From: Candidatus Lokiarchaeum ossiferum
Lineage (GTDB): Archaea; Asgardarchaeota; Lokiarchaeia; Sigyniarchaeales; Promethearchaeaceae
Assembly: GCA_025839675.1 (NCBI GenBank)
Contig: CP104013.1
Location: forward strand, 3,600,001-3,632,000
DNA length: 32,000 bases
Direction: 5' to 3'
The position numbers and the translations under genes are program-made. Positions within the stretch are counted from its first letter, which is position 1; every line of letters begins with the position of its first letter. The notes below the pieces were generated by a model, which saw only the letters and a program-made list of their open reading frames with translations, did not search any database and was not told the DNA's origin. Shown here piece after piece: positions 3,699 through 19,244 of this stretch.

Positions 3699-4901
3699 TT
3701 ACTGGAATAATCGAGTCATTTTAGAACCGCATGATTTGCATGTGTGATTGGATAATTTATCAAAGCAATGAGAATGATAGATGGCGTTACAATCTGGATT
3801 CCCACATTTTAAAACTTCATCCTTCTCTTCGAAGATCCCATCACAAACTGGACAGGCAGAATACATGGCTTCTTCTCCAAACGAACTTGCTATCGCTGTT
3901 GACACTGGATATGATTGAGGTGATTTCTTATCTGATTGAGATCCCTTCATTGTTTTCATCATTGATTGGTGCATTCTAACTGCTGTTTGAACAGAAGCGG
4001 GGATTTGTAAAAGATAAAGGCAATGAACACAACGAAAAATGGTTCCATCTCCTTCCTTATCTTGGTTTTTTGCCCACATACTGGCACAAGTTGTGTGCAT
4101 TGGGGTTCCACAGTTAGGACAAAACCGTCCCGAAATGGAAAAGCTTGTTTTTGAATATGGGTCGTTCGGTTGAAAACAAATCGAACAACGTTCATAAGAT
4201 TTGGTTCCTCTAAGTCGCTCTATTAACCCTTTTTGATCTTCGGTTCCTCGATTCATTTCATTTTCATCTAAAAGGGGGGCCGCTATCTTTTTTAATACTT
4301 TCGCAGATACTTTTTCTTTACTTTTCCGTGGGGTTGAGCTAGGAAGCTCCATATTTGATGTCGCTAGTTCGGCCACATAATTTAGAATTATTGCAGCGTT
4401 ATTTGCATAACTATATTTTCCCCCCGTCGTATCTGCCAGTTGTTTTAATATACTGAAGTGTTCTACATCGCCCACTCGTATAGTATCCATTTTAATACCC
4501 AATTGCTGTGAAAGGTTTGCCATTTTAATTGGATCTACCTTTGAATTGGTATATTTTCCATCGGAAAAAATTATAATCTTCGGAGATCTCGCACCATTAG
4601 TTCTGATGTCTTCAATTAGTATTTTTATTGCCATACCCACACCTTCTCCCAAAGCGCTTCGACCATGGCAGGTAAGATCTGCAAAGTAGGATGCGATTTG
4701 GTCATAAGATGCACTATCCGTAAAATCAAATACCTTTTTTGCAGCATCACTTATGACTACAACACTATAGGCTGATGAACTCCCAACTACGCTGTCATGG
4801 GTCATTCTTGACTGAATAAAATGAAGTATGGCGGATTTACAAGCTTCTAACCGATTTGGGCTGTAATCAGTACGGAACATGGATCGGGAGGCATCTAACA
4901 C
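3699..4901 (-). CDS. vWA-domain protein with two C-terminal C4HC3 (PHD / RING-variant-like) zinc-binding modules
   Basis: The vWA part has MIDAS DASRS (DxSxS) at residues 3-7 and the IIIFSDG strand. Zinc module 1 is C239-x2-C-x18-C-x2-C-x4-H-x2-C-x18-C-x2-C294 (nt 4020-4187). Zinc module 2 is C350-x2-C-x12-C-x4-C-x4-H-x2-C-x8-C-x2-C391 (nt 3729-3854). The listed start is GTG, and the true start is uncertain (see findings). Confidence 0.8.
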   Translation of the reverse strand: MLDASRSMFRTDYSPNRLEACKSAILHFIQSRMTHDSVVGSSSAYSVVVISDAAKKVFDFTDSASYDQIASYFADLTCHGRSALGEGVGMAIKILIEDIRTNGARSPKIIIFSDGKYTNSKVDPIKMANLSQQLGIKMDTIRVGDVEHFSILKQLADTTGGKYSYANNAAIILNYVAELATSNMELPSSTPRKSKEKVSAKVLKKIAAPLLDENEMNRGTEDQKGLIERLRGTKSYERCSICFQPNDPYSKTSFSISGRFCPNCGTPMHTTCASMWAKNQDKEGDGTIFRCVHCLYLLQIPASVQTAVRMHQSMMKTMKGSQSDKKSPQSYPVSTAIASSFGEEAMYSACPVCDGIFEEKDEVLKCGNPDCNAIYHSHCFDKLSNHTCKSCGSKMTRLFQ

Positions 4902-4952
4902 AAATACTATTGCTTCGGAGGCGTAATCGGGAATTTTTTCATCAGCTCAAAG

Positions 4953-4970
4953 ATTTATATATAAAAATAT
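4953..4970. promoter_or_regulatory. TATA-like A/T block (ATTTATATATAAAAATAT) in the divergent intergenic region between the vWA and GTPase genes
   Basis: It sits about 50 nt upstream of the vWA GTG on the minus strand and about 100 nt upstream of the GTPase ATG on the plus strand. Identification is by sequence pattern only. Confidence 0.25.
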
Positions 4971-5072
4971 GTTTTTCTTTCTTAAAGATTTACTCTTGCA
5001 ATAAAAAATGATCATTTTTTGGAAATTTACATAATTTTTTTTTTAATGTCGAATTAATAGAACTGATCATAA

Positions 5073-6275
5073 ATGTCTGAACAAAACTTTCTTGAAAAAA
5101 TCACGGGATTCTTTAAAGATGGACTTGATTTTTCTTCTATTAAAAAACCTTCTGATGTATTAGATTTACCTTTCGTTGAACTTAAAGCATTTGATGCGCA
5201 ATGGGCCCCTTTCTTTGAAGATTTTGAAGTAAAAACCATAAAAGAACTCGCTCAATTTTCGGAACCAATTATCATTGAAGGCTTAGATCCTGAAGATGTT
5301 AACAAACTCGCCATGATCGCGGAAATGTTATTCTGGAGAATGACACAATTATCCGAATTTGGAGAGCAAAAGAAAAAGGTTGTCTTTTTAGGTCTTGGTA
5401 ATGCTGGAAAAACTTCCGCATTGACTGCGTTATCCGAAAAATACTCTTCTATCAAAGAATTACTTCCGACCCGGGGATTGGCACGTCAAAATACAAAGAT
5501 TCTGGGGTACGATCTAATGGCTTATGATTTCGGTGGACAGAGTGAATATCGAGAACAATATTTCACTAAAGCTGATATGTATTTCTCAGAAGCTGATATG
5601 ATGGTCTTTTGCATTGATATTCAAGATAAAGATCGTTATAATGAATCCCTTGACTATTTAAAACAAATTCTTGAGACATATACCAAATTTGAACTTTTCT
5701 TACCCGTTTTAATTGTATTTACAAAAATGGATCCTGATATAGCCAACGAAGAAAGTATTAATTCAAGCCGAATTAAAATAATCGACGATATTGAGAAGTT
5801 TATTGATCCTAAATTTGATATTGGCTATGCAAATAGTTCTATCTTCGAAAGAAATTCAATCGAAAACTTATTCAGCTTGGCTTTAAAACGGATCTCTACC
5901 TCTGGTGGAGTAATTCAAGAATTGTTGAAAACCTTCGTGAAAGACATTAACGCCCGAGCATGCACTCTTATTTCCTCAACTGGATTAGTATTTGGTTCTT
6001 ATGGGGAAACTCATCAAGAAGAAGAAATGTTGAATAATTCTGCAGCCTACTTGCAAAACTTATATCTTTTCCATTTAACCACGGGTCTTCAAAAAGAAGA
6101 TTTCTATTCATTAACCTATGCGCGTAATAATATGCACTTTATTAGTGAATATATTACAACCTCCGATAGTGGAATGGTGTATTTATGGATTTTAACTCAA
6201 GATATGCGCCAAGAGGTCTTGGGAATTCCAAAATTCCGAGAAGAATTAATGCCTTTGATCGGGCTCTTCTTGTAA
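5073..6275 (+). CDS. Arf/Sar/Arl-like small GTPase with ~100-aa N-terminal extension and C-terminal roadblock/LC7/MglB-like domain
   Basis: G1 is GLGNAGKTS (nt ~5391-5417). G2/G3 follow the Arf pattern LLPTRGLARQNTKILGYDLMAYDFGGQSEYREQYF (PTxG...DxGGQ). G4 is VFTKMD (NKxD variant). The C-terminal 120 aa have residue patterns consistent with the roadblock order alpha-beta-beta-alpha-beta-beta (VIQELLKTFVKDI / ACTLISSTGLVFGSYG / NNSAAYLQNLYLF / MHFISEYI..MVYLWILTQD). Confidence 0.85.
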   Translation: MSEQNFLEKITGFFKDGLDFSSIKKPSDVLDLPFVELKAFDAQWAPFFEDFEVKTIKELAQFSEPIIIEGLDPEDVNKLAMIAEMLFWRMTQLSEFGEQKKKVVFLGLGNAGKTSALTALSEKYSSIKELLPTRGLARQNTKILGYDLMAYDFGGQSEYREQYFTKADMYFSEADMMVFCIDIQDKDRYNESLDYLKQILETYTKFELFLPVLIVFTKMDPDIANEESINSSRIKIIDDIEKFIDPKFDIGYANSSIFERNSIENLFSLALKRISTSGGVIQELLKTFVKDINARACTLISSTGLVFGSYGETHQEEEMLNNSAAYLQNLYLFHLTTGLQKEDFYSLTYARNNMHFISEYITTSDSGMVYLWILTQDMRQEVLGIPKFREELMPLIGLFL

Positions 6276-6743: not shown

Positions 6744-9164
6744 TTGACCTTAGCAAAAACGAATTTTCATTTACCTCAACATAATCAACGCTGCACAATT
6801 TCAAAATTGACTAATAAAATCGAAAATACTGAATCTGCTGCTGAAAACTTGATTGATATTATCGAAGATATATCCAAAAGTGTTGTTAATCAAATGGGTG
6901 CCATAGAAAAGGTGATCAAAGAAATTGAAAATTATTCCGTGGTCAATAAAGAAGTCAACGCACAGACTGAAAATTCAAAAATAATTGCTAACAATACTAT
7001 GGGTGTGGCAAAAAGCGGTCATGGGGCAACAGATCGCTCCATCAAGGCAATTGAGGCCATTGAAACTTCCGTTGGAAGTGTTAAATCAGAGGTTTTGAGT
7101 TTAAGTAAACAAACTCTGGAAATTTCAAAAATGCTTAAAATTATTAAAGATATTTCTCAAAAAACAAATATTTTATCCCTTAATGCTCAAATTGAGGCTG
7201 CCAGAGCGGGAGATGCTGGACGAGGATTTGCGGTTGTTGCTGATGAAGTGGGAAAACTCGCAAAAAGTAGTGATAATGCTGCAGAGGAAATTAATAATAT
7301 TTTATCAAAAATCGAAACCGGTATCAAAACCACATTGGAAGCCATGAAAGACAGTAATAATAAAGTCAAAGAAGGTGTACAAATTACTAAAGATACTAAT
7401 GCCGTTTTTGATAATATTATACAGTCTGTAGATGAAACTTCTGGAGTTATTAACGAAATCAATCTTTCTCTCCATCGTCAAAGTGATAGTTTGGGCCAAA
7501 TCATGGACTCCACTCAAATTATGGATGGAGAGTCTAAGAAAGTTATGAGTTTATCTGAAGTCGCCCTAATTGATGTTGAGAATACAAAGGCAGCCATTAA
7601 CCAGTTATCTAATGTAGGGGATATTTTGACTACTTTATCTAATCAAGTCGAAAAACTCCAAAACAAATTGAATTCTTCCCAGGAAAATATAATTCTCACC
7701 ACATATATGGCTGGAGAATTACGAACGAGAGATCCTGCAGTATCCACTGAAGCTGCGACCAATCATGTCCTTCAAAACATGCATCTTGGATTACTTACCA
7801 TGGGCAATAATTTAAATGCATTAGCAGGAATTGCCAAATCATGGTATGTAAAAGAAGATAATCTCACTTGGGTTTTTAATTTACGTCGGAATGTCAAATT
7901 CCATAATGGGAGAACAGTTAATGCTAATGATGTGAAATATTCCTTCAATCGTTTATTAAGTCCTCAGTTGAATTCCCCCGCAGCATGGTTTCTATTTCCA
8001 TTAGAAGGGGCTGAAGAATTTTATAATAGAAAAACATCCCTTTTTAAAGGGATTAAAGTAGTCAATACCTATCAAATTGAATTAAAACTGAAAGCACCAT
8101 ACCCCGGATTTATTTTGAATTTAACACAACCATCTACTGCAATCTTAGCTAAAGAGGATATTCCACGAGGCAAATTCACCGGATGTGGAAGTTATTATTT
8201 GTCTTCAGAGACAGAATCCCAATATATATTAGCTGCCTTTAAAGATTTTTATGGAGGTTTGCCATATGTTGATGAAGTTCATATTACTTACCAAGATGAA
8301 GATCTCGAAAAAAATGTTATTCAAGGCAAGTATCATTTCTTGGAGATTAAAGATATGAATCAAGTCAAAAAAATCCGTTCAACTAATTCGTCAATGACAA
8401 TCGAAACCATGGATATAATATCTTCCAATTTTGCTGCCTTTAATTTCAGATCGAATTCTATTTTTGTTCAAGATGTCGAGATACGTGAAGCAATCAACTA
8501 TGCTGTGAATAAAAAACGTATCATATCCGATGTTATGCTTGACTTAGTTGATGAATGTAAAGGTATTTTTCCACCCAGCATGTTAAATGATCGATCTATA
8601 AGTGGGTATCCATTTAATCCACAAAAAGCTAAGATGATCCTTAGGAAAAAAAATTTTAACAAATCTACCAACAAACTCAAAATTCTTATAAGAGAATCAG
8701 ATGTAAATTCAGACACCCAAAATCGAAAGATAATTGAATACATTGAAGAAGATTTAAAAACTGTCGGGATTGAGTGTTCATTAGTACCGGTACCTGCAGC
8801 CCAGTATTATAAACCAGAAAGCATGGCAAAAGCAGATATTGCCATTATTGGGTGGATCGCTGATACAGGAGATATGGATAATTTTTTGGAGCCTATTTTT
8901 AATGTTGCAAATTATACCAATTTCGGGAAATATGACAATCCCAAAGTGTTGGAATTAATGAAAGAAGCTAAGATGATCATCATTCCTGCAAAACGTATCG
9001 AAAAATATAAAGAAATTCAAAAAATTTTGCTCGCAGATGTGCCTTGGCTTCATCTATATCATTCAAAAACCATTGTAGCAAAGAAAAAAACAGGGATTGA
9101 AAATGTTCAATATTCCCCCGTAGGAAAAATCATGTTCGAAAATGTGATGATAACTGAAGAATAA
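6744..9164 (+). CDS. Soluble chemoreceptor-like protein: N-terminal MCP signalling hairpin fused to C-terminal family-5 (Opp/Dpp-type) solute-binding domain
   Basis: The MCP tip motif [33 protein letters not shown] lies at nt ~7174-7270. The SBP_bac_5-type block [42 protein letters not shown] is followed by ~480 aa of binding-protein-like sequence. I saw no hydrophobic TM or signal segment. The listed start is TTG at 6744, and the first in-frame ATG is at 6894, so the start is uncertain. Confidence 0.85.
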
Positions 9165-9166
9165 AG

Positions 9167-11056
9167 TTAGGATTTATGCTCGAATTTATATAACTCTTTG
9201 ATTAAACGTTCCAATTTGGATTCTTTAGCTATATTTTTTTTATTTGAATTTGCTTTTAGATTTTCTTGTGAAAATTTCTCCAATTCTTTCGTTACTTTTA
9301 TAATTTCTTGAATAACACTCAAATTTTCTTGAGTGGGAATCATTATGGGTATTTTTTGTAAATCTTTGATGTAAAATTGTAAGTAATCGCCTCGAACATG
9401 GGAATGGGAAAATAATGCGCGATAATACGTGCTAATAAATGTCGAATTCAAAATTCCAAGAAGATAGTAATATTCATCACAATGCGATTGAAAGAGGGAT
9501 AGAAATGGATATCGCATTTCTTCAGCATCGTTTTTTCTTACTAATAGAATGATAGAATTGTTGGCATAATATTGATCTCGATCTAGCGCTGCTTGGATTT
9601 GAGTTCCAAACAGTTTTATCATTATTTTTGGTTTAGCTTCAAAGATCCACTGATCCCTCAAGGAACCATAATCGCCTTGTGAACGATCGATCAAATCTGA
9701 ATTATAATGAACCCACAATCCATTCCACTTGATTTTAAACTTCTCCACCTTATCTCTTGAAGTTATTAGCTTTTTGAAGAGGTTAGAATCAGAAGATTGC
9801 TTTTTAAAAATCAATTTATCCTTCACATTTCCAGTATGAATCCCCTTTCGTAAAATATAGGGACTTGATTTAGAACCTATGTAAAAATAATTTTCTTTTG
9901 GCAGTTTCATTAAATATTCGATTAGTTTTATATTTGAAGAGTTTAAATCAGTTGATATTATAAAATCATGAGCAAGCAAGAAATATGATTGATCAATGAA
10001 AAAATTCTTAGAAAGAGGGGAGGTTTCATTCGAAATAATTGTTTTAAGGTCCGAAATCGTTTCAGTTTTAGCAATATGTATCTTATGTTGTGAGATTGAC
10101 TCAGAAGTGCATTCTTTTTTTTGTAAAATAATTATTACTGGGTATGTTGCGACATTATGAAAGATAGGGAGCTGGGACACATCAATAATATAATGAATCT
10201 TGGTTTGAGTTAGCAATAATTCCCTAATTTTCATACCATAGGATGATACCATCCATTTGTTGGTCAATATTAACCCTGCAAAACCACTTGGTTTGAGTAA
10301 TGTCACGATTTTCTCTAAGAACACTACGGAAATATCAAATTTTTTGTAAGCGCACTTGTATTTCTTTCTTAAAGATGCCCATGTTTTATCTGGTATTGCC
10401 CTTGATTCAATATAGGGGGGATTTCCCAATATAACATTGAATTGATGAGGTGTGTCGAGTTCTGGGTCGAACAATGCATCAGTTTCCTTCCATACTGCAT
10501 TTGGGATGAGGGAATGTTTTGACAAACTGATTGCGGTACCATCAATATCATAGCCATAATAGTTTTCCACATTAAAATGATATTCTGATGATAATTGTGA
10601 TTCTTGATCTTGAATCCACCATTGTGTCAGAAAACGCCCTGTTCCACATGCAATATCTGCTACTTTAATCGATTCGTCATGATTGGAGTCTTCAGAGTTT
10701 TGCTTCTTAGTTAAAAGCTGAATAATGTAATAAATTATTTCTTCTGGAGTATATACTCGACCTGATTCTCTCAATCGGGGTGTTTTTTCAATAATCCGAA
10801 GTTGAGTACCATCCCATTTTAGATAATGTTGAAAGAAAAAATGATAAATGGCCCCCAAAGGATCTGCTATCTCATCGTAAATTGTCCCATTTTTTATCAG
10901 ATTGATCGTTTCCTGCAAGTTCATCTGCATTAACACATTCCAATAATGTGTTCGGGATGATTCTTGGTCCCACGGCAAGTTTTTTTTTTTTAAAGTGCTT
11001 AATTCAAGCCTTATTTGCTGATACAATTTTTGTTTTAAGTTAGTGGGGGAAAACAT
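9167..11056 (-). CDS. N6-adenine DNA methyltransferase, gamma class (Eco57I/TaqI-like catalytic domain plus TaqI_C-like target-recognition domain); no nuclease domain
   Basis: Motif X is GRVYTPEEIIYYII, motif I is VADIACGTGRFL and motif IV is ILGNPPYIE, in the order X-I-IV. The C-terminal LLGILNSTFISTYYRALFS...GDYLQFYIKDLQKIPI resembles the TaqI-type TRD. Confidence 0.9.
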   Translation of the reverse strand: MFSPTNLKQKLYQQIRLELSTLKKKNLPWDQESSRTHYWNVLMQMNLQETINLIKNGTIYDEIADPLGAIYHFFFQHYLKWDGTQLRIIEKTPRLRESGRVYTPEEIIYYIIQLLTKKQNSEDSNHDESIKVADIACGTGRFLTQWWIQDQESQLSSEYHFNVENYYGYDIDGTAISLSKHSLIPNAVWKETDALFDPELDTPHQFNVILGNPPYIESRAIPDKTWASLRKKYKCAYKKFDISVVFLEKIVTLLKPSGFAGLILTNKWMVSSYGMKIRELLLTQTKIHYIIDVSQLPIFHNVATYPVIIILQKKECTSESISQHKIHIAKTETISDLKTIISNETSPLSKNFFIDQSYFLLAHDFIISTDLNSSNIKLIEYLMKLPKENYFYIGSKSSPYILRKGIHTGNVKDKLIFKKQSSDSNLFKKLITSRDKVEKFKIKWNGLWVHYNSDLIDRSQGDYGSLRDQWIFEAKPKIMIKLFGTQIQAALDRDQYYANNSIILLVRKNDAEEMRYPFLSLFQSHCDEYYYLLGILNSTFISTYYRALFSHSHVRGDYLQFYIKDLQKIPIMIPTQENLSVIQEIIKVTKELEKFSQENLKANSNKKNIAKESKLERLIKELYKFEHKS

Positions 11057-17186: not shown

Positions 17187-19244
17187 ATGAAAACCTTCAT
17201 AGAGATAAAACAAAATTTTTTGGAATTAATCACCAATCAAAATTCAGATCAAACAGTTCAACTCGAGGATCTCCAAGCCCAATTGCTTTCAATTCCGATT
17301 GACTCCTTCAATTACGTTCAATTCTGCGATTTAATAAAAAATTTGTGGAATTATGATTATTATGAATTAGTTTTAAAGTTTTCCCAAAGAATGGAATCCT
17401 TTTTTGAATCAAAAGAAGAAGATAAGTTGCATTCCAACCAAATTGAAAATTATCTCTATGAAGCTAGTGCTTTAGCTTGTTTATCTCAGATGGATTTAGC
17501 CCGTTCTATTTTTTCAAATTTATTGCGTGATGATTCACTTAGTGAGGATCATCGAGGAATCTGTTATTCAAATTTAGGGATAATTACTTTGATTGAAGGA
17601 AATACTGAAGAATCATTAGATTTTTTTCAAAAAAGTTGTGATTGCTTTGAAAAATCTCAAAATAAAAAAAACTATGCAATAGGCTCAAATTATTTGGGGG
17701 TTCATTTTTCCACAATTGGAAAATTGGACAATGCCATGCAGATGTATAAGAAAGGTTTGGAAATAAAAACGGCTGAGCACTATTTCATCTTACTTCCTCC
17801 AACTTATAATAATTTGGGTGAAATTTATTACAATTGGGGCGAGTTCGATCAAGCATCTCAGTATTATGAATTAGGTCTCAAATTCTCTGAAGATAACTCG
17901 AAAAACCCAGAAAAAATTTTTAAGATATTGGAAGATTGCCCGTGGTTTTTAACTCGATGGGGGGCAGCACCTGTAAGTTTTATTAGTGCGTTACAGCACG
18001 ATTCTTCCTTCTTTTTAAATAATCTCGCTCTTGTTTATCGATCAATGGGTGAAAATCAGAAATCCCTCGATTTCTTTAAAATGTCTTTGGAAACTGAAGA
18101 AAATTTTAGTAAAGATCATAATATCGCTGGAATTCTTTTTGAAATCATATATTTATTAACTGAATACCCCGATTTAGAAGATATATCAATCTATACAAAG
18201 AAATTTGAAGACTTGTATTTAAAAGTAGGACAAAAATCTTCCTTAATTCGCCAATATTTTATTTTAATGAAAGGTGTTCTTCATAGAAATAAAACGGACA
18301 TCCGAAGTATCGGAAAAGCAATGGATATATTTGAAATGTTGGTTAATGAAAATCTTCACAATGCAGACTTAATTAAATATTCACATTTATTTTTATTAGA
18401 ATCCTATTTAAAGGAACTGGAGTTGTTTGAAAATCTTGATACTTTAGCCAACGCGATTAAAATCAGCGAAAAACTCGAAATTGTTTCTAAAGATCTTTCA
18501 AATCCCGGATTATTCATCCAAATTTTGATAATTCAGAGTAAATTTGCCCAAATTCAATCCAACTTTAAATTAGCTAAAGAGAAGATTAGAATGGCTTTGG
18601 ATATTGCAGAGAAAAAGGATATGTACCGGTTGGCTGCAAATATTTATAAAGAATTGCAAAACCTCTCTAAAATTCAAAAAGTCTGGAAAGATATCGGTCA
18701 TATTAAATCTTCAATGGCAGAACGGATTAAGATGATTAAAATCAGTCCCTTAATATCCGCTATTAGTAAAAATCAATCTGAAGATATTGCTTCCATACCT
18801 GAATTTGCGTTAGAAAATATTAAGGTCGCCTTTTTTATGATGGCTGATATCGGTCCTGAGTTAATGTCCTATGAATCGATGCCTTTTATCGAAAATGAAT
18901 CAATTGTTCTCGAAAAAATCGCAATGTATTATTCGGTTATGTTAGGCCAAGGAAATTCTACAAATCAAGGACTTTATGGACCATTACCAATCCCAAATTC
19001 ACCGAATCATGTTTCCATAGTGTACACTTTTTATCTACCGAATAAAAATGCTCAAGATCCCCGTCTACAAGCAAATACTTATGGCATCATAAGTTTTCTC
19101 ATGCCTGAGCCCTTTGCAAAATTTTTTGCTGATAGAGAAAAGATTAATGAAAAAATAACCCATGAAATCAGCCAAATCAAAGATATTTCCGAAATCACTC
19201 GAACCACCATTTCCAACATCAAACTTGCATTAGTTCAGTTGTAA
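17187..19244 (+). CDS. TPR-repeat protein with C-terminal longin-like alpha/beta module
   Basis: TPR units are CYSNLGIITLIEGNTEESLDFFQKSCDCFEK, GSNYLGVHFSTIGKLDNAMQMYKKGLEI, YNNLGEIYYNWGEFDQASQYYELGLKF and LNNLALVYRSMGENQKSLDFFKMSLE. The last ~130 aa (IKVAFFMMADIGPELMSY...IAMYYSVMLGQG...HVSIVYTFYLPN...TYGIISFLMPE...INEKITHEISQI) have a beta-beta-alpha-beta-beta-beta-alpha residue pattern. Confidence 0.8.
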   Translation: MKTFIEIKQNFLELITNQNSDQTVQLEDLQAQLLSIPIDSFNYVQFCDLIKNLWNYDYYELVLKFSQRMESFFESKEEDKLHSNQIENYLYEASALACLSQMDLARSIFSNLLRDDSLSEDHRGICYSNLGIITLIEGNTEESLDFFQKSCDCFEKSQNKKNYAIGSNYLGVHFSTIGKLDNAMQMYKKGLEIKTAEHYFILLPPTYNNLGEIYYNWGEFDQASQYYELGLKFSEDNSKNPEKIFKILEDCPWFLTRWGAAPVSFISALQHDSSFFLNNLALVYRSMGENQKSLDFFKMSLETEENFSKDHNIAGILFEIIYLLTEYPDLEDISIYTKKFEDLYLKVGQKSSLIRQYFILMKGVLHRNKTDIRSIGKAMDIFEMLVNENLHNADLIKYSHLFLLESYLKELELFENLDTLANAIKISEKLEIVSKDLSNPGLFIQILIIQSKFAQIQSNFKLAKEKIRMALDIAEKKDMYRLAANIYKELQNLSKIQKVWKDIGHIKSSMAERIKMIKISPLISAISKNQSEDIASIPEFALENIKVAFFMMADIGPELMSYESMPFIENESIVLEKIAMYYSVMLGQGNSTNQGLYGPLPIPNSPNHVSIVYTFYLPNKNAQDPRLQANTYGIISFLMPEPFAKFFADREKINEKITHEISQIKDISEITRTTISNIKLALVQL

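Follow-up and report, generated by a model that had tools for sequence, protein, structure and literature searches.

A conserved head-to-head gene pair of Lokiarchaeia encodes a Rag-like GTPase and a vWA-RING-RING protein

Two divergent genes in Candidatus Lokiarchaeum ossiferum

The analysed stretch of Candidatus Lokiarchaeum ossiferum DNA, hereafter called the window, spans 32 kb, and ORF calling places two divergent ORFs of 400 aa each at 3699..4901 on the minus strand (gene A) and 5073..6275 on the plus strand (gene B). The original prediction, made from the sequence, had described a pair of signalling genes on opposite strands, and both ORFs are indeed present. The domains assigned at that stage, namely a vWA domain with RING/PHD-like fingers in one product and a GTPase-roadblock architecture in the other, were confirmed and refined by Pfam, AlphaFold models and profile searches. 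Judged by their sequences, both proteins look functional: no GTPase motif is missing, DxSxS is intact and the zinc ligands are conserved. Rfam and tRNA scans of the 32-kb window returned no matches.

A Rag-like GTPase with an acidic N-terminal domain

Gene B and its domains are located as follows:

5073..6275, plus strand: gene B (NEF87_003044), (HhH)2/Rag-like GTPase/roadblock protein of 400 aa; ORF call, 100% identity to an L. ossiferum protein
5073..5363, plus strand: acidic N-terminal (HhH)2 domain; profile against the PDB, Pfam HHH_5, charge count
5364..5897, plus strand: G domain with the full motif set; Pfam Arf and Gtr1_RagA, invariant columns
5391-5417, 5526-5540 and 5721-5732, plus strand: G-domain motifs GLGNAGKTS, DFGGQ156 and TKMD220, respectively, together with T133; invariant columns
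5898..6272, plus strand: C-terminal roadblock domain, equivalent to the C-terminal roadblock of Rag proteins; AF2 secondary structure, Foldseek

The G domain is of the Rag/Gtr type, with Pfam scores of 64.8 bits for Gtr1_RagA (cut-off 22) and 69.7 bits for Arf, and the motifs GxxxxGKT/S, T133, DxxGQ and [NT]KxD are invariant among 28 sequences of the GTPase family. In the AF2 model (pLDDT 79), residues 276-399 form a roadblock topology (alpha-beta-beta-alpha-beta-beta-beta-alpha), a domain that probably mediates dimerisation. The best structural matches of the protein are lokiarchaeal "RagA-like" GTPases, eukaryotic RagA/C and Gtr1/2; for the G domain and roadblock together, Foldseek retrieved LokiRagO (8yl2, 1e-20), RagA/RagC (~1e-15) and Gtr1/Gtr2 over ~300 columns. 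A second Rag-like gene (304-305 aa) adjoins the paired GTPase in the related loci L094, L015 and L021 and is absent from the window.

The N-terminal domain contains 19 D/E against 9 K/R residues. Its profile matches the C-terminal acidic repeats of NusA (3.7e-6) and the RNA polymerase alpha-CTD (3e-3) in the PDB, and Pfam HHH_5 was found in 6 of 21 members of the GTPase family (best 1.7e-4). The strongly acidic character of this (HhH)2 domain makes protein binding more plausible than DNA binding.

A vWA protein with two RING-type fingers

The product of gene A is 99% identical to a 'VWA domain-containing protein' of Ca. L. ossiferum and combines the following elements:

3699..4934, minus strand: gene A, vWA-RING-RING protein; annotated and ORF-called from GTG 4901 (400 aa), proposed start ATT 4934-4932 (411 aa)
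4347..4934, minus strand: vWA domain of the Rpn10/Ssl1 type; Pfam, invariant motif columns, PDB profile matches, Foldseek
4881-4895, minus strand: MIDAS motif DxSxS (DASRS), invariant in the family alignment
4020..4187, minus strand: zinc finger 1, C4HC3, RING/PHD-type, C-x2-C-x18-C-x2-C-x4-H-x2-C-x18-C-x2-C
3729..3854, minus strand: zinc finger 2, RING-type, C-x2-C-x12-C-x4-C-x4-H-x2-C/H-x8-C-x2-C; Pfam Prok-RING_1 and zf-RING_2 (both under cut-off), PDB profile matches

The Rossmann-like vWA fold is recognised by Pfam (VWA_2, 48.2 bits, cut-off 27; VWA, 39.5 bits), and the AF2 model (pLDDT 83) matches many vWA structures in Foldseek. Both the DxSxS motif and the Asp of the S-D-G motif are invariant columns of the family alignment. 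At the usual position of the MIDAS Thr a GRS/GGxS motif is found, with Ser in place of Thr in most members, and metal binding is putative. Searched against PDB sequences, the vWA family profile retrieved a bacterial vWA protein (4rck, 1.7e-16), Rpn10 (3.7e-16) and TFIIH p44 (8e-11). The protein is a candidate relative of the eukaryotic signature proteins Rpn10 and p44.

With the annotated GTG start at 4901, the vWA domain would lose its strand beta-1. In-frame codons upstream of this GTG read IPDYASEAIVF and align with the N-termini of orthologs, MP[DE]xxSExIVF. Because of these two observations, the true start is most likely the non-AUG codon ATT 4934-4932, which shortens the spacer between the genes to ~138 bp. 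Another idea was that the vWA start is restored from an upstream ATG at 4942, either by frameshifting (-1) or by slippage of the polymerase on the A6 run. The ATG followed by A6 is present in the window and in locus L001; the idea was rejected since this ATG is ATT in the 83%-identical locus L088 and, at 4942, lies too near the TATA box. A non-AUG start (ATT/ATA) is the better reading for the vWA gene.

Both fingers carry the eight cross-brace zinc ligands with RING/PHD spacing. In finger 1, all 8 ligands are invariant among the 24-26 sequences aligned, as is a Trp four residues past the sixth ligand; in finger 2, the sixth ligand is Cys or His and the third is kept in at least 90% of the sequences. 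Finger 1 is matched by Pfam zf-RING_2 in 14 of 16 members (best 8.5e-5), by PHD in 13 and by FANCL_C in 10, and weakly by the FANCL RING (0.013) and NSE1 in PDB profile searches, in which finger 2 (profile positions 343-401) matches the RINGs of Arkadia (8.6e-4) and RLIM (3e-3). The window protein itself stays below the curated RING models Prok-RING_1 (26.6 against 29.1 bits) and zf-RING_2 (21.6 against 27.3 bits), and its PHD match is likewise under the Pfam threshold. A predicted RING-dependent role as ubiquitin-type ligase or adaptor has a slightly less than even prospect of being correct. C4HC3 fingers can also serve as readers of the PHD kind, or have a structural role only, as those of TFIIH p44 do.

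The whole-model comparison raises the alternative that the vWA-Zn-Zn protein is an archaeal counterpart of p44, the scaffold and regulator of a helicase, with the (HhH)2-GTPase acting on DNA or on complexes associated with RNA polymerase and not in ubiquitin signalling. Human and yeast p44/Ssl1 are the best Foldseek matches of the gene A model (1e-16, ~410 columns), although with a full-length rmsd of ~20 Angstrom; the Pfam Ssl1 cut-off of 27 bits, which the window protein does not reach (22.9 bits), is passed by its relatives P0184, P0194, P0211 and P0232 (30-34 bits), and the likeness of the GTPase N-terminus to the (HhH)2 of the NusA acidic repeat and RNA polymerase alpha-CTD would fit such a role. 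However, the sequence profile favours Rpn10 and bacterial vWA domains over p44, and the C4HC3 fingers match RING E3s; p44-type zinc modules were detected neither by Pfam (no C1_4 match) nor among the PDB profile matches. The acidity of the (HhH)2 domain speaks against p44-like machinery as well, and no XPD, XPB or other helicase or TFIIH-like gene occurs in the neighbourhoods of any of the 96 loci. A p44-like role is thus considered improbable.

The divergent spacer

The region between the two genes contains several sequence elements:

4935..5072, no strand: divergent spacer of 138 bp, 23% GC; 171 bp (4902-5072) from the GTG ORF call
4954-4965, no strand: palindromic TATA-like block TTTATATATAAA, ~21-33 nt upstream of the ATT start; read from the sequence
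4946..4957, minus strand: TAAATCTTTRAG element copy 1 (TAAATCTTTGAG), exact copy
4981..4992, minus strand: TAAATCTTTRAG element copy 2 (TAAATCTTTAAG), exact copy, then BRE/TATA-like run AAAAACATA
5003..5020, no strand: perfect palindrome of 18 bp, AAAAAATGATCATTTTTT, flanked by the putative promoters; a palindrome of this length in only 9 of 2000 shuffles

The spacer had been described as A/T-rich, 171 bp long and equipped with a symmetric TATA-like block. Its composition (23% GC against ~34% for the window) and the block, TTTATATATAAA at 4954-4965, bear this out; with the ATT start, the length is probably 138 bp, and the median in related loci is 199 bp. Given archaeal TATA-to-TSS spacing, TTTATATATAAA is a candidate TATA box of gene A, and its distance of ~21-33 nt from the ATT start would imply a leaderless or very-short-leader mRNA. 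Instead of the single shared promoter initially proposed, the spacer more likely holds a pair of distinct TATA/BRE-like promoters placed back to back, plus a conserved upstream element.

Within the 32-kb window, exact copies of this element, TAAATCTTTRAG, occur only in the spacer, which has two of them; the position of copy 2 is kept in orthologous spacers. In L002, L003, L011 and L088 the sequence AAATCTTTARG precedes the vWA start by 74-83 nt, and a looser motif of the TAAATCTTTRAG type occurs in 21 of 68 spacers (2.7 expected). A conserved cis element is hence common to the spacers of the Lokiarchaeum and Promethearchaeum lineages. The 18-bp palindrome was examined as a conserved operator and rejected, as L088, a relative with 83% identity, does not keep it; its significance is uncertain.

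Conservation and specificity of the pairing

Related loci were collected by an alignment-based metagenome scan (a single-protein contig scan gave 2 loci), and those with enough upstream DNA were regarded as informative (n=80). A GTPase ortholog lies directly upstream of the vWA gene on the opposite strand in 71 of them, and in a further three only a ~120-aa ORF call separates the two genes. The resulting 74/80 strongly supports the predicted divergent pair among orthologs, with the reservation that a single archaeal class supplied every locus and that many of the metagenomic ones are closely related, so that inherited synteny contributes to the count. When the loci are clustered into lineages at 70% identity, 20 of 24 have the head-to-head pair; vWA identity to the window spans 38-84% across paired loci, and the recurrence of this arrangement is far above chance. 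Reciprocal look-ups from the GTPase side recovered the vWA gene in three of three cases, two of them divergent with 175-178 bp spacers and one rearranged with the genes at most 2.2 kb apart.

The simplest alternative is inherited synteny only, in which the genes are neighbours by descent, belong to unrelated pathways and are served by two independent promoters in the spacer. The restriction of all loci to one class is consistent with it, as is the partial synteny of an MtrH-like gene, CODH and an Eco57I-type methylase, which have no obvious functional link. Yet GTPase-vWA is the most conserved adjacency of the neighbourhood (74/80, compared with 52/77 on the downstream side of the vWA gene and 20/57 on the far side of the GTPase) and persists longer than any other across clades with an identity of only 38-58%. 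Four lineages depart from the strict head-to-head layout; where the pair is split, the genes remain linked within ~3.5 kb, for instance in L004 and L095 with the rearranged order vWA, TPR/SNAP-like, proteasome alpha, GTPase. Furthermore, the pairing is limited to one orthogroup: paralogous vWA-RING-RING genes have no GTPase neighbour, and one of these belongs to a MAG assembly that also contains an ortholog locus, on a different contig. Synteny by descent alone is therefore an unlikely explanation, and the two genes are probably functionally coupled.

Neighbouring genes and a possible ubiquitin/proteasome link

In other lineages the pair is accompanied by genes for a proteasome alpha subunit, a TPR/SNAP-like protein, an E2 and a JAB deubiquitinase, none of which occurs within the L. 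ossiferum window. The proteasome alpha gene adjoins in MK-D1-type and in L004/L095-type loci and is absent from the loci of the largest clade, and the E2 and JAB/MPN genes adjoin the vWA gene in a 31%-identity clade only. These neighbourhoods hint at an involvement in ubiquitin/proteasome processes, a link that is also drawn from the Rpn10 vWA match and the finger matches to RING E3s. The eukaryote-like ubiquitin logic first suggested for the pair has thereby gained some backing from other lineages. Membrane trafficking, suggested alongside, has no direct support; the extra domain of the GTPase is an (HhH)2 domain, and a membrane anchor was not observed. A recurrent 380-aa TPR neighbour was considered as a PCI-type proteasome-lid subunit and rejected, since PDB profile searches gave only generic TPR, Vps4-MIT and alpha-SNAP matches. 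TOR or Ragulator genes were not seen in any neighbourhood.

The same data could be read as a proteasome receptor or assembly factor, whose vWA domain docks on the proteasome/PAN like Rpn10 and whose fingers read a tag, the GTPase being no more than a neighbour under common regulation, or else a loading factor. Rpn10 is the best eukaryotic sequence match of the vWA domain, and two distinct gene orders place proteasome alpha next to the pair. Against this stand the lack of UIM-type ubiquitin-binding motifs and the missing proteasome alpha gene in the L. ossiferum locus and the largest clade; moreover, Rpn10 needs no intact MIDAS, yet DxSxS is invariant here. Such a receptor role is accordingly given little weight.

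A possible GTPase-controlled module

Starting from the domain content and intact motifs of the two proteins and from the conservation and specificity of their pairing, we infer a physical or regulatory link between them, a direction of control and E3 activity. Gene B would act as a Rag-family switch, in which a G domain with all catalytic motifs stands between an acidic (HhH)2 domain for protein binding and a roadblock, and gene A as an adaptor or E3-like protein with an Rpn10/Ssl1-type vWA domain, an intact DxSxS motif of the putative MIDAS and two RING-type fingers. The AT-rich spacer of 140-200 bp, with its conserved TAAATCTTTRAG element, would drive both genes in opposite directions from TATA-type promoters arranged back to back. 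In one nucleotide state the GTPase might bind the vWA-RING-RING protein, and it is conceivable that an acidic residue of the GTPase completes the MIDAS coordination. Binding would then localise or switch on a RING-finger activity that feeds the archaeal ubiquitin/proteasome system. Alternatively, the roles may be reversed and the GTPase may be the substrate.

On balance, we lean towards a conserved, lineage-specific two-gene module of Lokiarchaeia that works by the mechanism proposed here. Direct, nucleotide-dependent binding of the GTPase to the vWA-RING-RING protein is more tentative, with a somewhat less than even chance. The most specific version, a GTPase-gated ubiquitin-ligase/proteasome adaptor in which the Rag switch recruits or activates an Rpn10/p44-type vWA-RING-RING E3 through its (HhH)2 domain and roadblock dimer, is speculative and rather doubtful.

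Asgard genomes encode dozens of small GTPases with unknown partners. The GTPase-RB architectures of MK-D1 have been surveyed structurally, the roles of its GTPases are unknown and their partners are generally not revealed by genome layout (Tran et al., 2024, PMC10933270). The pair described here is an exception, as it provides one specific Rag-like GTPase with a fixed, orthogroup-specific genetic partner, and it would tie GTPase switching to the archaeal ubiquitin/proteasome toolkit. Both Ca. L. ossiferum and P. syntrophicum MK-D1 carry the pair and are in culture, which offers a testable entry to a pre-eukaryotic Rag-type switch. If the reading as a GTPase-gated adaptor is true, the family might stand close to where the intracellular vWA proteins of eukaryotes (Rpn10, TFIIH p44/Ssl1) have their evolutionary root, and also close to the root of RING control over Rag-type GTPases.

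Comparison with known systems

A literature search on Asgard vWA/RING/ubiquitin proteins and Loki Rag GTPases retrieved no published description of the GTPase/vWA-RING-RING pairing. The best Pfam finger match of gene A, although under threshold, is Prok-RING_1 (PF14446), and E3 ligases of the eukaryotic vWA/copine-RING type, plant RGLG1/2 among them, join a vWA domain and a RING-type finger in one polypeptide. Gene A differs from both in having two fingers instead of one, and we know of no pairing of a Rag-like GTPase with either family. Rpn10, the closest eukaryotic vWA protein by sequence profile (3.7e-16), carries UIM motifs, not RING fingers, and has no known GTPase partner; in gene A, Pfam detected no ubiquitin-interacting motif and the C-terminal half consists of the two zinc fingers. 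TFIIH p44/Ssl1 shares the domain order of a vWA domain followed by two zinc modules. In p44 these modules are a C4 finger and a C4C4 RING-like module, unlike the C4HC3 RING/PHD-type of gene A.

Eukaryotic RagA/B-RagC/D and Gtr1-Gtr2 have the same two-domain architecture as gene B, with Foldseek E-values of 1e-15 to 1e-11 over ~300 columns at an identity of only 13-21%, and lack its N-terminal (HhH)2 domain. They are obligate heterodimers formed via their roadblock domains, are anchored by Ragulator/EGO and signal to TORC1, and their signalling is modulated by RING proteins too (GATOR2 subunits, RNF152). To our knowledge, archaea possess neither TOR nor Ragulator nor a lysosome. The Asgard Rag-like GTPases LokiRagO (8yl2), the best structural match of gene B (E 1e-20, 27% identity), and LokiRagM (8zla, 9m28) come from the same class of organisms and likewise consist of a G domain and a C-terminal roadblock. 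Compared with these, gene B is distinguished by the extra conserved acidic N-terminal (HhH)2 domain and by its fixed vWA-RING-RING gene partner.

A conserved divergent gene pair

Two divergent open reading frames of 400 aa each are present, as the original prediction had claimed:

3699-4901, minus strand: gene A, vWA-RING-RING protein, ORF call, 400 aa
5073-6275, plus strand: gene B, (HhH)2/Rag-like GTPase/roadblock protein, ORF call, 400 aa

The products of gene A and gene B share 99% and 100% identity, respectively, with Candidatus Lokiarchaeum ossiferum proteins. Orthologs of gene A were collected at 88 loci, 80 by an alignment-based metagenome scan and the remainder by genome and contig look-ups, and orthologs of gene B were placed by tblastn and ORF clustering. 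Among the 80 loci with an upstream ORF call, the window included, the GTPase gene lies directly upstream on the opposite strand in 71, and in 3 further loci a single ORF call of about 120 aa separates the two genes; the median spacer across related loci is 199 bp. Conservation of the divergent arrangement, which had been proposed as a check on the pairing, was thereby found in 74 of 80 loci, a raw count inflated by common descent within one class, and in 20 of the 24 informative lineages (25 in total when grouped at 70% identity). These lineages include Promethearchaeum syntrophicum MK-D1 and show 38-84% vWA identity to the window. Adjacency of the pair exceeds that of any flanking gene, either downstream of the vWA gene (52/77) or beyond the GTPase gene (20/57). 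Look-ups begun from the GTPase recovered the vWA gene in three of three cases, namely Loki CR_4 and locus L096, with divergent pairs and spacers of 175-178 bp, and locus L095, which is rearranged. The rearranged loci L004 and L095 carry, in this order and all within 5.6 kb, the genes for vWA, TPR/SNAP-like protein, proteasome alpha and GTPase. The GTPase neighbour is absent beside the more distant vWA-RING-RING paralogs examined, one of which shares a MAG assembly with an ortholog locus but is on a different contig. Given the common descent of these loci, the pair could be purely inherited synteny, an unlikely reading; functional coupling of the two genes is the best reading, given that the pair is conserved, survives rearrangement and is specific to one orthogroup.

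Two of the paralogs, on unrelated contigs (L091 6001-9333 and L093 4815-8213), are followed by a methionyl-tRNA synthetase gene, with no GTPase gene nearby.

Start codon and spacer

The annotated start of gene A, GTG 4901, entails the loss of vWA strand beta-1. In the alignment, the upstream in-frame codons IPDYASEAIVF match ortholog N-termini of the form MP[DE]xxSExIVF, and the position of the ortholog methionine reads ATT in the window and in L088 (an 83%-identical relative), ATA in the related locus L001 and ATG in other lineages:

4932-4942, minus strand: putative start region of gene A (equivalents at about 1019 in L001 and about 290 in L088)

In all three Lokiarchaeum-lineage sequences an in-frame stop lies just 1-4 codons upstream of the putative start, and in the comparison of the codons between stop and start region their differences are mostly synonymous. 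The most parsimonious reading is that gene A likely begins at a near-cognate AUU/AUA codon at position 4934, leaving a spacer of 138 bp. Use of the upstream ATG at 4942 followed by a frameshift is less likely, since this ATG reads ATT in L088.

The short A/T-rich intergenic region described originally was recovered as an ORF-call spacer of 171 bp (4902-5072) with 23% GC vs about 34% window-wide, and its symmetric TATA-like block corresponds to the palindromic TTTATATATAAA at 4954-4965. On the minus strand the TATA-like run stops about 21 nt ahead of ATT 4934, which suggests a leaderless transcript of gene A or one with a very short leader. A second, distinct run, TTTACATAATTTTTTTTTT, is located at about 5027-5046, 30-48 nt ahead of the GTPase ATG. 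With a separate TATA-like run for each gene, the spacer looks like two putative back-to-back promoters, so that of the proposed single promoter region the shared A/T-rich spacer with its TATA-like block stands and the single promoter is less likely.

The element TAAATCTTTRAG has just two exact copies in the 32-kb window, at 4946-4957 and 4981-4992 (both minus strand), which are 35 bp apart inside the spacer on either side of the putative vWA TATA box. L088 and the MK-D1 (Promethearchaeum) lineage also carry it, at a conserved position 74-83 nt ahead of the vWA start:

L002 5886, L003 5927, L011 110 and L088 207: TAAATCTTTRAG element in related loci

A relaxed form of the motif is present in 21 of 68 spacers (2.7 expected). 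The element is a candidate transcription-factor site. Between the two putative promoters lies a perfect 18-bp palindrome, AAAAAATGATCATTTTTT (5003-5020), unusual given the composition (length matched in 9 of 2000 shuffles) and not kept in L088. TGATCA recurs at 5064-5069, right before the GTPase ATG.

Domain architecture of the two proteins

The GTPase-roadblock architecture attributed to gene B is confirmed by Pfam (Arf 69.7 bits, Gtr1_RagA 64.8 bits), by G motifs invariant across the family (P-loop, switch-I Thr, DxxGQ, [NT]KxD) and by the AlphaFold model (pLDDT 79), in which a helical N-terminal domain (1-96) and a G domain (101-274) precede a roadblock of alpha-beta-beta-alpha-beta-beta-beta-alpha topology. 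Top Foldseek matches are crystal structures titled 'RagA-like small GTPase from Asgard Lokiarchaeota' (8yl2, E 1e-20), followed by eukaryotic RagA/RagC and Gtr1/Gtr2 with about 300 aligned columns. By profile, the N-terminal 97 residues match the NusA (HhH)2 acidic repeats (3.7e-6) and also the RNA polymerase alpha-CTD, and Pfam HHH_5 is found in 6 of 21 family members. The acidic charge of this domain (19 D/E vs 9 K/R) argues for protein rather than DNA binding.

In gene A, VWA_2 and VWA exceed the Pfam threshold and the putative MIDAS residues (DxSxS and S-D-G) are invariant among 24-26 aligned orthologs. The predicted RING/PHD-like fingers are upheld by the same alignment, in which each finger has eight invariant zinc ligands spaced as C4HC3; all RING/PHD-type Pfam matches of the window protein are sub-threshold (Prok-RING_1 26.6 bits, cut-off 29.1). 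Finger 1 is matched by zf-RING_2 in 14 of 16 family members and also by FANCL_C and PHD, with weak profile matches in the PDB to the FANCL and NSE1 RINGs, and finger 2 matches the Arkadia and RLIM RING domains. The RING-RING module is scarce (77 representative clusters among 1.84 billion); all tested relatives have a vWA domain at the N-terminus, and several of them score above the Pfam Ssl1 cut-off.

Genomic neighbourhood and possible pathway

A proteasome alpha subunit gene adjoins in MK-D1-type and L004/L095-type loci, and a gene for a 380-aa TPR/SNAP-like protein, not detectable as a PCI-type lid subunit, recurs near the vWA gene at 51 loci. Both accompany the vWA gene in three gene orders (L003 7256-9293; L004 2437-4385; L095 2895-4769; L040 9256-10413). 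In a clade with 31% identity, the vWA-RING-RING gene has genes for a JAB/MPN protein and an E2 of UQ_con type as neighbours; at L005 2126-6024, and likewise in L006 and L007, it directly follows the JAB/MPN gene, whose 495-aa product has a coiled-coil tail, and a GTPase of 481 aa, extended at its N-terminus, is encoded 2.2 kb away. None of these proteasome alpha, TPR/SNAP-like, JAB/MPN or E2 neighbours occurs in the L. ossiferum window. Combined with the Rpn10/Ssl1-like vWA domain and the RING-type fingers of gene A, the neighbours in other lineages point to the archaeal ubiquitin/proteasome system.

Further genes were observed near the GTPase gene. In L094 (6285-7199), L015 and L021 a second, shorter Rag-like GTPase (304-305 aa) is encoded immediately beside it, possibly a heterodimer partner by analogy with RagA/RagC. 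Beyond the GTPase, the largest clade encodes a second GTPase, Arf-like and with an N-terminal domain of 170 aa, as well as a V4R-like protein (L040 130-1888; L036 1740-2363; L028 2749-5097), sometimes a GPP34/GOLPH3-like protein, and a CODH/Prismane gene is among them. An Eco57I/N6_Mtase/TaqI_C-type DNA methylase gene lies nearby in L. ossiferum (9167-11056, minus strand), MK-D1 (L003 2711-4615) and Loki CR_4 (L094 7909-10065), with no restriction partner noted beside it at these loci.

Three other stretches of the window merit mention:

6744-9164, plus strand: 806-aa ORF with TTG start, an unusual combination of a methyl-accepting chemotaxis signalling domain fused to a family-5 solute-binding domain
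17187-19244, plus strand: 685-aa TPR protein with a weak, sub-cut-off RPN7-like match (19.7 bits) and a C-terminal domain of about 130 aa
19278-22663, minus strand: 445-aa ATPase of the MoxR/dynein-type AAA_5 group whose C-terminal tail is very acidic, then a protein of 675 aa that matches nothing in Pfam

Since vWA proteins are the usual partners of MoxR ATPases, a link of the AAA_5 ATPase to gene A is conceivable.

Proposed function and relation to known families

The components of the pair are of known kinds. Rag-like GTPase-roadblock architectures in MK-D1, with extra domains and roles noted as unknown, have been described from AF2 models, and partners of such GTPases are generally not revealed by genome layout (Tran et al., 2024; PMC10933270). 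Literature searches found no description of a fixed pairing of this kind, of an (HhH)2 domain at the GTPase N-terminus or of the non-AUG start. For an Asgard Rag-like GTPase, the pair offers a partner that can be put to the test in two cultured organisms. The most likely reading, to which we give somewhat better than even chances, is that the Rag-type switch and the vWA-RING-RING protein would act jointly, the GTPase recruiting, activating or being modified by a RING-type adaptor tied to ubiquitin/proteasome function.

Two alternatives follow from the likeness of gene A to eukaryotic proteins. The best whole-chain Foldseek matches of its AlphaFold model (pLDDT 83) are human and yeast TFIIH p44/Ssl1 (E 1e-16, about 410 columns, but rmsd about 20 Angstrom); next come BatB and Rpn10, as isolated vWA domains. 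A p44-like role in nucleic-acid processes is improbable. By sequence profile the closest vWA domains are bacterial 4rck (1.7e-16) and Rpn10 (3.7e-16), with p44 at 8e-11. A role as an Rpn10-like proteasome receptor has an equally small chance. Since the defining C-terminal modules of p44 and Rpn10 are not matched in the gene A protein, it falls outside both families, to which it may be related via its vWA domain.
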